Part shown: in pieces, positions 2,771 to 12,009 of the stretch
How the letters are laid out: each line of letters opens with the position of its first letter
How positions within the stretch are numbered: the stretch's first letter is position 1
Origin: Minisyncoccota bacterium
Lineage (GTDB): Bacteria > Patescibacteriota > Minisyncoccia > Phycocordibacterales > UBA9973
DNA length: 64,000 nucleotides
Assembly (NCBI GenBank): GCA_041665925.1
Contig: JBAYHW010000002.1
Span: forward strand, 26,838-90,837
Reading direction: 5' to 3'
The notes under the pieces: generated by a model
Told to the model about the DNA's origin: nothing
Database searches by the model: none
What the model saw: the letters and a program-made list of their open reading frames with translations, nothing else
Translations under genes and position numbers: made by a program

Positions 2771-3067
2771 ATGGAAAAGAAAAATCCTAAAATACTAGAA
2801 TACAAAAAAGAACTTCTGGAAGTTTTTTCAAGTATTAAGGGCGATAAAAAGCTAATGGCAGAATTTTTAATAGATATTTTGACACCCGCAGAGTTCGATG
2901 ACCTGGCCCTCAGGTGGCAGTTAGTAAAAAGATTGTATAAAGGAGATACCCATAGAGCTGTAGCAGGGGAGTTGGGTTTGGGTTTAGGGAAAGTCATGAG
3001 AGGATCTAGAGAACTTCGTAATAAAAAAGGGGGGTTTAATCTAATTCTTAAAAAACTAAGTAAGTAA
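2771..3067 (+). CDS. YerC/YecD-family (TrpR-like) helix-turn-helix protein
   Basis: 98 aa. DILTPAEFDDLALRWQLVKRL...GDTHRAVAGELGLGLGKVMRGSRELRN...GGFNLILKKL matches the conserved TrpR/YerC-YecD pattern (LLTP.E...L..R, TG.S..TI.R, GG[YF].L.L). It starts 8 nt after trpS and is probably co-transcribed. Confidence 0.7.
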   Translation: MEKKNPKILEYKKELLEVFSSIKGDKKLMAEFLIDILTPAEFDDLALRWQLVKRLYKGDTHRAVAGELGLGLGKVMRGSRELRNKKGGFNLILKKLSK

Positions 3068-4380: not shown

Positions 4381-4467
4381 CCCGTTTAGCGGGGACATTG
4401 ATCTTTGACAAGTGAATAGTTGTTCTTTTTACGTTGGGGTCAAATCCAAAGAAAGGAGGTGAAGAAA

Positions 4468-6039
4468 ATGAATCCTACAGAAGTTAAAATTGTCATGGAG
4501 ACAATCAAAAAGTCTCTAGGCAACGGCGAGGATGGCTATAACCTGGCGGCACTTCTAAGAAGTGCAATCCAGAAGAAGGTCGCAGAGCTTGAAAAAGAAC
4601 GAAAAGAGAGGGGGGAAGAGGAAATTCAAAGGAAACTCGCTCTCCCTATTCAGCGGGCGGACAAACTTCTTTCTTCTGTTCCACGCCTAGTACTGGAAGA
4701 GATAGACAGTTACACCCGAAGTCATAAATGGGGCGAGCTGTCAGTCTCAGCCCAGCAGAAGTTGCATGAACTGGGCGTTCTCGATCTGTGGGCGAAACGC
4801 CGGACTTACGGACCGGATGGTGGAGAGAAACCTTCAGTCAGCTGGTTTGAACCATTCGGGAAAGCTCTGAAAAATCTCATCTGTAACAAGGTAGATGAGT
4901 TGCGTCGAAGTGACGCAGAGGCCACAGAGGCAGCTCGACAAGCTAGGTTGCAGCCAGCCCAAGAGCTTTTGAATGAGCTTTTAGCAAAGTCCGTCAGGCT
5001 TTCGCTCGAAGATGCAAAAGCTTGTAAGGAGGCGCTGGAGAAGTGGATCGAGGACAATGCCTACCGGCCGTACAGTGGTGGCGGCGGGGGTGGGAGTGGT
5101 TGTGTGGTTTCTGATTCGCAAGAGCCGTTCTTGCGAGGGCGATGGGGCCCGCCTATGAAGTGGCCCCCAACAAATTTTTCGGAGAGACAAATGAATCCGA
5201 TCAAAATCGCAGTGGTGGGATTCGGGGATTTCGGTTCCCGATTCGTTAGGTGGCTCCGGAAAGCGAGAGTCGGTGTCGAAACCATCGCGGTGGTAGACCC
5301 GATTCCTGGGAAAATCTGGGGCCCCGCGGGCGTTCTCGTGAGCCCCAGCATCCACGCAATCTCGCAGCGGGTCCTTTCACAGGTGCAGGTCTTCGTCGAT
5401 TGCACTTCCAAAGGGCAAGGCAAGGAGAATCTTGGTCTGTACCAAGCGCTCGGCAGACCGGCCGTGTTTCAAAACGGCGAAGACCGAGCGCTGTGTCAGT
5501 TGTTCCGCGCGGGCTCGACATTTCTTGCGGGAGCGCCGTACCTCCGCATCCCGCAGTGCTCGGCGCTGGCGACAATGAGTGTGTTTGAAGCGCTTCATCC
5601 GCTTCTCGACATTCGTTCCGTCTACACGCTCCATGCCAAGATCAACAACAAAGACAAAATGCTCGGCCTGGGCGACAAGTCTGCGGCCGACATCACCACG
5701 CTCGCAGAGATTCCGGCGGTCGTTGACGTGTGGTACTTGCGAGAGAAGCCGAAGCAGGGCCGCACGCAGTACGTCTACCACGGCAATCTGCACTTTCAGT
5801 GTGGGGGTGCAATTCCGTCGGCGGATCGCATTCGGAAAGCGCTCATGGCGTCCCGTGTGCCACTGTGTACGCAGGAGCTCGACTCGCTGATTTCACCACG
5901 TCTCACGCAGACGCACGTGGTCGCGGAGAGCATTTCGGTTCAGGGAAACAGCGTTCGCATGAACGTGATTTCCTGGACACCGGAAGTGAACTTTCCACAA
6001 AACCTGGCCGCAATCAAATTGCTGGCCAAAGTTCTTTAA
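4468..6039 (+). CDS. Fusion protein: unknown coiled-coil N-domain + poly-Gly linker + archaeal type-II GAPDH-like NAD(P)-binding dehydrogenase domain
   Basis: Strong SD AAAGGAGGTG 8 nt upstream of ATG 4468 (the track ORF starts at 4420). C-terminal half has IAVVGFGDFGSR (Rossmann), VFVDCTSKGQGKENLGLYQALGRPAVFQNGED (archaeal GAPDH signature DCTP.G.G..N...Y...G..A.FQGGE) and a conserved Cys in RIPQCSAL at the position of catalytic SCNTT. N-terminal ~230 aa has no recognisable family. Linker is SGGGGGGSG. GC is ~58% against a ~35% background. Confidence 0.6.
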   Translation: MNPTEVKIVMETIKKSLGNGEDGYNLAALLRSAIQKKVAELEKERKERGEEEIQRKLALPIQRADKLLSSVPRLVLEEIDSYTRSHKWGELSVSAQQKLHELGVLDLWAKRRTYGPDGGEKPSVSWFEPFGKALKNLICNKVDELRRSDAEATEAARQARLQPAQELLNELLAKSVRLSLEDAKACKEALEKWIEDNAYRPYSGGGGGGSGCVVSDSQEPFLRGRWGPPMKWPPTNFSERQMNPIKIAVVGFGDFGSRFVRWLRKARVGVETIAVVDPIPGKIWGPAGVLVSPSIHAISQRVLSQVQVFVDCTSKGQGKENLGLYQALGRPAVFQNGEDRALCQLFRAGSTFLAGAPYLRIPQCSALATMSVFEALHPLLDIRSVYTLHAKINNKDKMLGLGDKSAADITTLAEIPAVVDVWYLREKPKQGRTQYVYHGNLHFQCGGAIPSADRIRKALMASRVPLCTQELDSLISPRLTQTHVVAESISVQGNSVRMNVISWTPEVNFPQNLAAIKLLAKVL

Positions 6040-9924: not shown

Positions 9925-10249
9925 TGATTTATTAAATAAAAAATGCGTACCATGCGAAGGGGGAGTGTTCCCGCTGACACGCGAAGAAATACCCCCTTAC
10001 ATGGCACAAATAAATGGCTGGGAACTTTCCGAAGACGCTACCGAGATTTCTAAGCAGTATAAATTCAAGGATTTTATCGGTGCGATAAATTTCGTGAATC
10101 ACGTAGCCGAAATTGCGGAGGCAGAAGGTCACCATCCAGACATTCATATCAATTACAATAAAGTGAAACTCGTGCTCTCCACGCACGCCATCGGCGGTCT
10201 CTCCGAGAACGACTTTATCCTAGCTGCGAAAGTAGACGCGAGCAAATAA
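9917..10249 (+). CDS. Pterin-4-alpha-carbinolamine dehydratase (PCD/DCoH)
   Basis: 110 aa. CVPCEGG...L near the N-terminus, and the EGHHPDI motif typical of PhhB/DCoH. Confidence 0.7.
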   Translation: MSNDLLNKKCVPCEGGVFPLTREEIPPYMAQINGWELSEDATEISKQYKFKDFIGAINFVNHVAEIAEAEGHHPDIHINYNKVKLVLSTHAIGGLSENDFILAAKVDASK

Positions 10250-10316
10250 AAAAAGGGCGTAGTAGTTGTGTTCCAAACTTGCTACGTCCTCTTTTGCGCG
10301 GGCCAGGCGCGATGAA

Positions 10317-10880
10317 TCAGTGAATGCCACCAGAACTTCCGCAGTAGTGCGAGTCCGATTTAAGCCGGAGTACAATGAACCCACGACGGCGAAGTTGTAA
10401 GAGAGGGTGACGGTTTCCGTTTTTGAATGCGGAAATCGACTTCTCGCGATCTCTGAGGTCTGCTCTGTACTTCTGCATGTCCGTTTTGTATTTCAGAGAG
10501 TACAGCTTGTTGATCTCGTCGATCACCTTCGAGAGTGATCTTTCCAAACCAAGAGATTTAATCTCAGAGATCCTGATTTTAATCTGGCTTCCCTCGAAAC
10601 AAACCTCATCTCTGTAAAGATACGAAGTCTTGGGATTAAATGCCCTCTCGAGCCCTTGACGAATCCATTCAACAGTGAGCTTGCTAGTACCCCGAGGACG
10701 CTTGGGACGGATAGGTTTCCGGAATAGGTCGTCGATGAGATTCTCTTCGCGCTTGTAGACCGCACATGGAATGTTCACTGATGCGAGCGTCTCATCGATT
10801 GTTCCAGTCGCATCCTTGAGTTCTTTCCAATTTCGTACGATCTTGCCGCGCTTGACCGAATATTTTTCGATACTAAGCAT
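10317..10880 (-). CDS. Hypothetical protein (187 aa), unknown family, elevated GC
   Basis: Strong SD AAAGGAGGTGA 8 nt upstream of the minus-strand ATG. GC ~47% against a ~35% background. No recognisable motifs. Lies downstream of a TrpR-like gene of similar GC. Confidence 0.55.
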   Translation of the reverse strand: MLSIEKYSVKRGKIVRNWKELKDATGTIDETLASVNIPCAVYKREENLIDDLFRKPIRPKRPRGTSKLTVEWIRQGLERAFNPKTSYLYRDEVCFEGSQIKIRISEIKSLGLERSLSKVIDEINKLYSLKYKTDMQKYRADLRDREKSISAFKNGNRHPLLQLRRRGFIVLRLKSDSHYCGSSGGIH

Positions 10881-10939
10881 CCCTTTTCACCTCCTTTCTA
10901 TTTGATTTTAAAGAACGATAGGTTTTTCCTACTAACGCA

Positions 10940-10968
10940 AAACCCCCTCCACAATGGAGGGGGTTAGG
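10940..10968. terminator. Bidirectional intrinsic terminator CCCCCTCC-ACAATG-GGAGGGGG flanked by A/T runs
   Basis: Perfect 8-bp GC stem with A-run upstream and T-run downstream (AAAACCCCCTCC...GGAGGGGGTTAGG). Sits between the two minus-strand genes. Confidence 0.5.
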
Positions 10969-10984
10969 TTCGAAATAAAAATAA

Positions 10985-11377
10985 TTACGAGCTCAAACGC
11001 AACCCTTTCCGTTGTGGAGAAGAGTTGCTGCGATGTAAACGAGAAAGAATCAAGCGGTAGCCACCGAGGGAGCCGTAAAGCCATTTGGCGATGCGGGCGA
11101 TGGTGGTGGAAGAAAGCCCCGTCGATTCGCTGATAGCTTCGTATTGGACGTCGCGAGAGAGAAGCCGTGCGGCTTCGAGGCGCTTGCTGAATTCGGTAAT
11201 TTCCGCGGGGGTCAGGAGGTCGCGGAGAAACCGCTTAGCTTCATCGGTCGTTTTCAGCTCTAAAATACCAGCCACCAGCTGCCTGGTTTCCTTGGTATTC
11301 CAATCCGCATCCGAGCCGATCTCGGTCACCAGCCGGACTGTTTTTACCTTCGTATTTTTATTCATTCCCGTACTCAT
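10985..11377 (-). CDS. YerC/YecD-family (TrpR-like) DNA-binding protein, second paralog
   Basis: 130 aa. LRDLLTPAEITEFSKRLEAARLLSRDVQYEAISESTGLSSTTIARIAKWLYGSLGGYRLILSRL matches the YerC/TrpR family pattern very closely. GC ~52%. Confidence 0.75.
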   Translation of the reverse strand: MSTGMNKNTKVKTVRLVTEIGSDADWNTKETRQLVAGILELKTTDEAKRFLRDLLTPAEITEFSKRLEAARLLSRDVQYEAISESTGLSSTTIARIAKWLYGSLGGYRLILSRLHRSNSSPQRKGLRLSS

Positions 11378-11380
11378 CCG

Positions 11381-11423
11381 TCTACTTTAGCAAACTAAAG
11401 TACTTTAGTCAAGTAAAGTAGAT
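11381..11423. promoter_or_regulatory. Operator array: four alternating half-sites TACTTTAG / CTAAAGTA, including the perfect 14-bp palindrome CTAAAGTACTTTAG
   Basis: Read directly: TCTACTTTAG-caaa-CTAAAGTACTTTAG-tcaag-TAAAGTAGA. It lies immediately upstream of the TrpR-like gene start (11377, minus strand) and in the divergent promoter region of the GNAT gene. GTAC core as in TrpR operators. Confidence 0.5.
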
Positions 11424-11475
11424 AAAAAAGGTGTGGATAACTTTTTTCTTATAATCTATTTGCTATAATGCCTGG

Positions 11476-12009
11476 ATGGCTGAAGATTTGTTTAAAATAG
11501 AAGACGCTAAGCCGGAAGATGTGGTTGGAATACGCAGTATCATCCGAGATAGCTGGCTAAAGATTTACCCCAACGAAGATTATGGAATCAAAGTTGAAGA
11601 TATTGCCACGATTGACTGGTTTAATGCTGAAAGCCTGGAGATTCGGAGAAAAGAAATTATGGAAAAAACTGATTCAGTTCACGTCTTTGTCGTAAAAAAT
11701 GACAAAAAAGATATCATGGCTTTTTGTAAAGTTTTGAGACATGACGATTGCGGGGAAATAGATGCGATATACATCGTTCCTGAATTTCAGCGAAAGGGAA
11801 TAGGCCAAAAGCTAATACAAAAAGCTTTTGAGTGGCTAGGACCTGAACTCGATATAAAATTAGTGGTAGTAAAATACAATTATCCGGCAATCGAATTCTA
11901 CAAAAAATTCGGGTTCAAAGAAACTGCGAAAAAAGTTATTTATGATGGGACCCAACTCCCGAGCGGAAAAGAAATTCCTAGAATTGAAATGGTAAGACTA
12001 AAAAATTAG
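11476..12009 (+). CDS. GNAT-family N-acetyltransferase
   Basis: 177 aa. Acetyl-CoA-binding motif QRKGIGQKL and surrounding GNAT core (IVPEFQRKGIG...). Confidence 0.7.
   Translation: MAEDLFKIEDAKPEDVVGIRSIIRDSWLKIYPNEDYGIKVEDIATIDWFNAESLEIRRKEIMEKTDSVHVFVVKNDKKDIMAFCKVLRHDDCGEIDAIYIVPEFQRKGIGQKLIQKAFEWLGPELDIKLVVVKYNYPAIEFYKKFGFKETAKKVIYDGTQLPSGKEIPRIEMVRLKN

Follow-up and report, generated by a model that had tools for sequence, protein, structure and literature searches.

A near-invariant tandem array as the probable double operator of a HisR (YerC/YecD)-type regulator gene in Patescibacteria

Our analysis of a 64-kilobase (kb) window from a Minisyncoccota bacterium (64,000 nucleotides (nt); GenBank assembly GCA_041665925.1, contig JBAYHW010000002.1, positions 26,838 to 90,837) centred on an array of inverted repeats and on the gene beside it, which encodes a TrpR-family protein of 130 amino acids (aa). 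Very probably, the array is a double operator for the repressor of HisR (YerC/YecD) type encoded by this adjacent gene. The initial annotation had seen in it the operator of the adjacent TrpR-family gene, which is supported by ortholog comparison, and had proposed autoregulation, which is predicted from the position of the array in the gene's own promoter. In the mechanism that we propose, two repressor dimers would occupy the array and exclude RNA polymerase, resulting in negative autoregulation; as the two operators together span positions -43 to -6 relative to the predicted transcription start, bound repressor should occlude the polymerase. By analogy with HisR, binding would probably depend on histidine or a related ligand.

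The array occupies positions 11381-11422 of the window, which read TCTACTTTAG-CAAA-CTAAAGTACTTTAG-TCAAG-TAAAGTAGA. The sequence as first described is present there, but since the array measures 42 nt, the end then given, 11423, lies one base too far. A repeat finder resolves it into inverted-repeat arms of 21 nt (11381-11401 and 11402-11422), which are 81% complementary and have no loop between them, and also into an 18-nt direct repeat with a spacing of 18 nt. The array is far from chance: the 8-mer TACTTTAG is present three times inside 26 nt (at 11383 on the plus strand, 11395 on the minus strand and 11401 on the plus strand) and eight times in the window as a whole, versus 3.07 expected, a count that none of 100 shuffles reached. 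With three mismatches or fewer allowed, the site pattern TACTTTAG-N4-CTAAAGTA occurs in the 64 kb only at the two places in the array. A dispersed repeat resembling the repetitive extragenic palindromic (REP) elements was considered and rejected, as the window holds no further copies.

The nature of the repeat unit is indicated by 435 kb of related DNA, from which the regulator's own (self) arrays were excluded. There, ACTTTA-N6-TAAAGT occurs 29 times versus about 0.08 expected from the frequency of the half-sites, and each of the other spacings from 0 to 15 occurs 0-1 times. The reverse arrangement, TAAAGT-N0-ACTTTA, was found four times, and relatives hold tandem pairs of 20-mers of the kind whose junction has exactly this form. 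Since only the N6 spacing is enriched, the array is best described as two abutting palindromes of 20 base pairs (bp), TACTTTA-N6-TAAAGTA, with their centres 18 bp apart. The promoter-proximal operator reads TACTTTAGCAAACTAAAGTA on the plus strand and TACTTTAGTTTGCTAAAGTA in gene orientation, the promoter-distal one TACTTTAGTCAAGTAAAGTA and TACTTTACTTGACTAAAGTA, respectively, and the two have 2 bp (TA) in common. The array had been described initially as a 14-bp palindrome with an AGTACT core and two flanking half-sites; given 29 sites at N6 versus four at N0, this core is no more than the junction of two 20-bp units.

A scan that retained one genome per species yielded 80 loci from Paceibacterota, Nomurabacteria, Kaiserbacteria and other Patescibacteria, with proteins 55-75% identical to the query, and the orthologs compared for the array have protein identities of 55-87%; the presence of the array was counted over 78 ortholog loci and that of the DnaA box described below over 77. 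The initial annotation had named absence of the motif upstream of orthologs as the finding that would speak against it, and the motif is present there: at least one site precedes the regulator gene in 77 of the 78 loci and a tandem pair in the 18-bp register in 66, the sole exception (L044) having two perfect sites about 280 nt upstream. For an alignment of 67 rows, we combined the window with the 66 loci that have no more than six mismatches to its array. Of the 38 columns of the array, 19 do not vary at all and another 15 reach a conservation of 90% or more; pairwise identity is 0.91 in the array versus 0.33-0.36 in the flanks. The upstream consensus of most loci, in gene orientation, is (A)GTTATCCACAcc-N10-cTACTTTAsTTGACTAAAGTACTTTAsTTTGmTAAAGTr-N6-ATG. 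Five distant relatives of higher guanine-plus-cytosine (GC) content (L066, L070, L072, L073 and L076) keep only TTGAC and the proximal palindrome, and the proximal operator is the part retained even in the most distant orthologs. A metagenome scan with TACTTTA-N6-TAAAGTA returned mostly chance matches in unrelated organisms (at least 120 loci, among the matches listed); about eight of those listed were informative, four of them with arrays (L112, L130, L162 and L179) and four with a site adjoining hisR or hisZG (L085, L178, L184 and L192).

The encoded protein, whose open reading frame (ORF) begins 3 nt past the array, belongs to the TrpR family (Pfam Trp_repressor, PF01371, E 4e-16), and within it passes the NCBIfam model for YerC/YecD, TIGR02531, with 61.9 bits (cutoff 42.2), and fails the TrpR equivalog model, TIGR01321, with 17.3 bits (cutoff 67.25). 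A database entry with the identical sequence is called 'YerC/YecD family TrpR-related protein, Candidatus Paceibacterota', and the protein has 1394 homologues. Both by sequence and by predicted fold, its nearest solved relatives are 3G1C, 3FRW and 3KOR, with E. coli TrpR ranking after them. The earlier label 'TrpR-like' is thus right for the family and wrong for TrpR proper, and on the strength of these matches the annotation should read 'HisR/YerC-type'. The recognition-helix pattern TG-S--TI-R is kept, as are four of the five acidic positions common to solved HisR-type proteins. An N-terminal extension of about 25 aa and a conserved C-terminal tail complete the protein. Neither extension is resolved in the AlphaFold monomer model, which is moderate (predicted local distance difference test score, pLDDT, 66.7), as would be expected for an intertwined dimer.

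This assignment connects the array to a characterised operator. YerC of B. subtilis has been renamed HisR, a histidine repressor with the 20-bp palindromic operator cacTTTAnnnnnnTAAAgtg, and HisR operators are known in Firmicutes, Actinobacteria and Synergistetes, where 183 genomes have such sites upstream of hisR itself (Ashniev et al., BMC Genomics 2022, PMC9413887). The operator was validated in vitro with HisR of R. gnavus and L-histidine, binding being histidine-dependent, while the TrpR motif differs from that of HisR and the residues that contact tryptophan are not conserved in HisR-type proteins (PMC9413887). Both 20-mers of the window fit the HisR consensus exactly and are 2-3 nt from HisR sites of Bacillaceae, such as tacattagcaaactaaagtg and catattagcaaactaaagta (sites from PMC9413887). 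The operators, at -43 to -6, also fall within -350 to +50 of the gene start, the promoter region in which a HisR site is expected.

The operators are interleaved with the promoter that they would control (Table 1). A consensus promoter scan of the minus strand found TTGACT-17 nt-TAAAGT with an upstream TG between 11412 and 11384. The -10 hexamer TAAAGT (11384-11389), invariant in 67 of 67 aligned arrays, is also the right half-site of the proximal operator, and the TG lies within the proximal spacer; in the -35, TTGA never varies and the C and T after it reach a conservation of at least 98%. Both spacers are conserved here because they house the -35 and the TG, whereas spacers at non-self sites in relatives vary and the HisR consensus leaves the spacer free. 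The gap of 6-7 nt between -10 and ATG is retained in most orthologs. In the window, dnaB, trpS, the M1 aminopeptidase gene, the GNAT gene and at least eight other operon-first genes show TGnTAnnnT-6-ATG without a Shine-Dalgarno sequence, and since this arrangement is common among operon-first genes, a leaderless start at 11377 would be the default of this genome. We thus infer a leaderless mRNA that starts at 11377 in a genome that seems to use leaderless mRNAs as a rule. Most operon-first genes of the window have this layout, with examples at 1715, 1807, 11476, 14591, 20340, 24256, 34714, 50553, 53232, 58551 and 62583. Four Nomurabacteria loci (L004 2915-3000 and the equivalent regions of L006, L007 and L009) have about 72 extra nt, which include a hairpin GTCCCGTA...TACGGGAC, inserted between the conserved promoter and the ATG, which gives these four genes a leader, unlike all the others.

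Table 1. Coordinates of the array, its operators, the regulator gene and the associated signals in the 64-kb window.
Feature	Position	Strand	Basis and remarks
Whole array, 42-nt near-palindrome with two probable HisR-type 20-bp operators	11381..11422	.	Repeat finder, ortholog conservation
Promoter-proximal operator (probable)	11383..11402	.	-25..-6 from predicted start; perfect 8+4+8 palindrome, 0 mismatches
Promoter-distal operator (probable)	11401..11420	.	-43..-24 from predicted start; 7+6+7 palindrome, 1 mismatch
YerC/YecD (HisR-type) TrpR-family regulator gene, 130 aa	10985..11377	-	Pfam PF01371, TIGR02531
Predicted -35, TTGACT	11407..11412	-	Promoter scan; inside the 6-nt spacer of the distal operator
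Predicted extended -10, TGcTAAAGT	11384..11392	-	Promoter scan; 17-nt spacer, TG present
ATG start codon, predicted transcription start at the A (11377)	11375..11377	-	6 nt past the -10, no Shine-Dalgarno sequence
Terminator-like hairpin and T-run	10943..10960	-	25 nt past the regulator stop codon; promoter/terminator scan
Perfect DnaA box, TTATCCACA	11432..11440	-	-63..-55 from predicted start, 11 nt upstream of the array

The terminator-like hairpin past the stop codon, a segment kept 3' of the regulator gene in several relatives, makes the gene monocistronic in this genome. Together with the lack of any other site in the window, this means that the visible circuit is one of pure self-control. 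In relatives, the same promoter would also drive his or other genes: hisI, hisG, hisS/Z or prs lies directly 3' of the regulator gene in about 14 of the 78 loci, L047 having a regulator-hisI-hisG-hisD run, and SLOG-cluster-4, phosphoribosyltransferase-like or other genes are found there at other loci. At other genes, sites occur as single 20-bp N6 palindromes. AstE/AspA-like genes (L069-L076) and a SLOG4 gene (L028) have perfect ones 6-8 nt ahead of a leaderless ATG, and further ones lie upstream of an EamA gene and of genes that we presume, from their sequence only, to be LysE-like and nucleoside-phosphorylase-like. Many sites are located at the far end of the regulator operon, where they face the 3' end of a convergent gene for pterin dehydratase or EamA. 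Copies in this location include single ones (L009 3815, L017 4307, L039 5032 and L049 5742) and tandem pairs (L031 4935/4953, L007 3243/3261 and L006 4032/4050), and some are extended to GCTACTTTA...TAAAGTAGC with runs of A and T, resembling bidirectional terminators. These operon-end copies could be looping partners, roadblocks or terminators.

Several points weigh against the double-operator reading or parts of it. We infer binding, repression, the transcription start, the effector and any role of DnaA from sequence. The effector may differ from histidine, given that this clade has an invariant Arg (E/D to R52) at the remaining one of the acidic positions common to solved HisR-type proteins. 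With centres 18 bp apart, the dimers would not bind to the same face of the helix, and cooperativity is therefore not guaranteed. The terminator-like appearance of some operon-end copies implies that the palindrome can have another use. The window contains no his genes, nor any gene linked to the regulator in relatives. It also holds no other site, matches at 2-3 mismatches being at chance level in the 64 kb, and therefore no regulon is definable inside it; the motif search that the initial annotation had put forward as a way to define one, when run in the window, yielded the two array sites only, and no regulon emerged. Finally, the HisR study gives single sites per operon and describes no tandem ones (PMC9413887).

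Upstream of the array lies the only perfect copy of the DnaA box in the 64 kb, a match to TTWTNCACA. In the 35-45 nt that precede the array, 42-43 of the 77 loci have an exact TTWTCCACA (random windows, 0%) and 53 a box with no more than one mismatch (random windows, 0.9%); orientation is fixed in 42 of 44 boxes, and the box stands 10-11 nt from the array at 32 loci and 0-1 nt from it at five, distances one helical turn apart. Variation falls mainly on the third position, which is degenerate in the consensus: of the 53 boxes scored, 42 are TTATCCACA or TTTTCCACA (third position A in 30 and T in 12) and 11 vary elsewhere. Such conservation suggests a second input to the promoter, through which DnaA would act from a box 10-11 nt upstream. 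The box of the window also overlaps the -35 region of the GNAT promoter. A replication origin was rejected, the single perfect box in the 64 kb forming no cluster. Six loci (L009, L016, L027, L036, L050 and L061) have a third HisR-type palindrome 36-38 nt upstream of the array, with a right half-site that overlaps the DnaA box at its start (TAAAGTTATCCACA); in the window, only AAAAGT remains at this place. With such an overlap, binding of the repressor and of DnaA would be mutually exclusive. Partial duplicates of the module (DnaA box, 10-nt gap and distal palindrome with TTGAC) occur upstream in L004 (2791), L023 (1385) and L034 (2169), the latter two adjoining a gene inserted between the M1 peptidase gene and the regulator gene, which suggests rearrangements at the conserved array.

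A wider proposal, which we regard as unlikely, joins several of these observations: the HisR-type regulator of Paceibacteria would be broadly conserved and no longer tied to histidine synthesis. The near-invariant promoter module (box, gap, double operator and leaderless start) would couple the level of the regulator to DnaA and thereby to the replication or growth state, the operators at the operon end would allow DNA looping or roadblocking, and in genomes without linked his genes, such as this one, the regulator would serve a different set of genes, possibly with a different ligand.

An alternative to the HisR-type double operator is the idea that the array consists of four alternating half-sites of 8 nt on which tandem dimers overlap, with three dyads 9 bp apart and the AGTACT 14-mer as its core, in the manner of E. 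coli TrpR. All three dyads are present in the sequence, the protein belongs to Pfam Trp_repressor, and there is weak symmetric co-variation of the outer positions (of nine arrays with C at column 9, seven have G at column 46). However, the N0 palindrome is rare beside the N6 one outside self arrays, and tandem 20-mers create N0 junctions of themselves; other genes show single 20-bp N6 sites, the protein fails the TrpR model and passes that for YerC/YecD, and the HisR motif is unlike the TrpR operator. We therefore consider this arrangement very improbable. The cooperative binding of tandem dimers proposed in the initial annotation survives in part: two tandem dimers remain likely, whereas the GNACT geometry of E. 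coli with its 8-bp offset does not fit a HisR-type site with an N6 spacer.

There is also little chance that the principal binder of the array is another protein, either a 98-aa TrpR-family paralog or DnaA, which would then exert most of the control through its box. Such a paralog does exist in the window (2771..3067, plus strand), and the conserved DnaA box is only 11 nt away. Against this, the paralog is closer to TrpR than to YerC and has a different recognition helix, the array always travels with the gene of the 130-aa protein, and the DnaA box is separate from the half-sites and missing in about one third of the loci that keep the array. As the paralog gene begins 8 nt past trpS, it is probably co-transcribed with it; no inverted repeat that might be its operator was found upstream of trpS (1716-1806). 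The opposite leanings of the two paralogs, towards TrpR and towards YerC, mark them as functionally distinct regulators.

That the region is only a strong promoter, with an upstream element, a -35 and an extended -10 but no repressor and with merely incidental palindromy, strikes us as highly improbable. TTGACT-17-TGcTAAAGT is a good promoter match and its two hexamers are among the most invariant columns, yet the same invariance holds for columns that belong to no promoter element (ACTTTA on the upstream side of the -35, and AAAGTACTTTA within the spacer), and the -10 of this promoter is fixed as TAAAGT whereas other genes here have TATAAT, TAGAAT or TAAAAT. Moreover, further copies of the palindrome are found outside promoters and, with other spacers, at other genes, and the sequence equals a known operator. 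Equally hard to credit is a nucleic-acid structure, be it an attenuator or terminator hairpin in the RNA of read-through transcripts or a DNA cruciform: the RNA fold of -14.2 kcal/mol (z = -3.9) and the A and T runs beside some operon-end copies in relatives would favour it, but palindromy by itself accounts for this stability, 21 of the 67 arrays have an uncompensated break in the inner pair 21-34 while most pairs never vary, no T-run follows the hairpin at the array, a leaderless start would leave the array outside the regulator mRNA, and the array has no match in Rfam, for which the whole window gave only one tRNA elsewhere.

The plus-strand neighbour on the other side of the array (11476..12009) encodes a GNAT acetyltransferase. 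The initial annotation had the two genes share a divergent promoter; this proved untenable, as the GNAT gene has its own -10, in a TGcTATAAT-6-ATG promoter at 11462-11478, and is not conserved at the locus, being absent from the orthologous loci, where the upstream neighbours vary. Its regulation by the array was rejected on the same grounds. The wider synteny of M1 peptidase, regulator, pterin dehydratase, EamA and AspRS genes is common to about 25 loci, whereas the GNAT gene and a downstream ORF of 187 aa, for which a homologue search found only itself, are specific to this genome.

The 187-aa ORF is part of a variable GC-rich cassette between the regulator terminator and the pterin dehydratase gene (window 10250-10984, minus strand), counterparts of which are seen in relatives (L001 3405-4065, L006 3425-4035 and L036 3330-4450). 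Its ORFs have strong Shine-Dalgarno sequences, the copy in the window being the 187-aa ORFan, and its last 65 nt or so (window 10250-10314) are conserved. The content varies by genome and includes Cys-rich 'HNHCWG' ORFs and a 229-aa ORF, which we take to be VanX-like from the appearance of its sequence. The cassette looks like an insertion hot spot. A second GC-rich ORF (window 4420-6039, plus strand, 523-539 aa) has the same ribosome-binding site, AAAGGAGGTGAA, unlike its leaderless neighbours, and may have come from the same foreign source as the 187-aa cassette. Base composition is also unusual in the regulator region (9950-11377), where the gene has 53% GC versus 38% for the window and the excess stops sharply at the array; in relatives, the GC content of the regulator gene is only about 2% above that of the flanks. 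The gene may have been replaced laterally, by recombination with one boundary at the conserved array.

To our knowledge, almost nothing has been established experimentally about the control of transcription in bacteria of the Candidate Phyla Radiation. The array and its gene offer this group a concrete and testable pair of regulator and operator, consisting of a small protein that is expected to be easy to purify and a site of 38 nt that hardly differs among many uncultured genomes and is interleaved with a predicted leaderless promoter, and would extend the HisR regulon concept to a new superphylum. The conserved DnaA box could, in addition, link a metabolic repressor to the replication initiator.

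Among known systems, E. coli TrpR shares with the regulator described here the fold family, a palindromic operator of about 20 bp, control of its own gene and the use of more than one dimer per operator, the last being a prediction in our case; tandem TrpR dimers on the trp, aroH and trpR operators were reportedly described by Lawson and Carey in 1993 (PDB 1TRR). TrpR has GNACT half-sites and overlapping dimers 8 bp apart, whereas here the half-sites are ACTTTA with an N6 spacer and the predicted dimers are 18 bp apart. Promoters with DnaA boxes include those of dnaA and nrdAB in E. coli and of the DnaA regulon in B. subtilis; the present promoter resembles them in its single consensus box, TTATCCACA or TTTTCCACA, in fixed phase upstream, and no report known to us connects DnaA with a regulator of HisR type. 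Leaderless genes with a -10 located 6-7 nt before the start codon are found in Actinobacteria and Deinococcus. The predicted start of the regulator gene is like theirs in having TGnTAnnnT-6 nt-ATG and no Shine-Dalgarno sequence, and differs from them in that its -10 doubles as an operator half-site. The closest parallel is HisR, with which the system has in common the YerC/YecD subfamily, the palindrome cACTTTA-N6-TAAAGTg, a site before its own gene and, in part of the relatives, linkage to his genes. It departs from HisR as characterised so far in its host, the Patescibacteria (Paceibacterota) being a group absent from that study (PMC9413887), in its pair of sites, which keep a constant 18-bp register and are interleaved with a predicted leaderless promoter, in the N-terminal extension and C-terminal tail of the protein, in the conserved upstream DnaA box and in the absence of a his gene or second target from the window. 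As self-regulation by HisR is already known in other phyla, the array would be a new example of a known circuit; it is unusual in that it hardly varies across a large uncultured clade, that its sites stand in a tandem 18-bp register and are interleaved with promoter elements, and that a DnaA box is conserved upstream of it.

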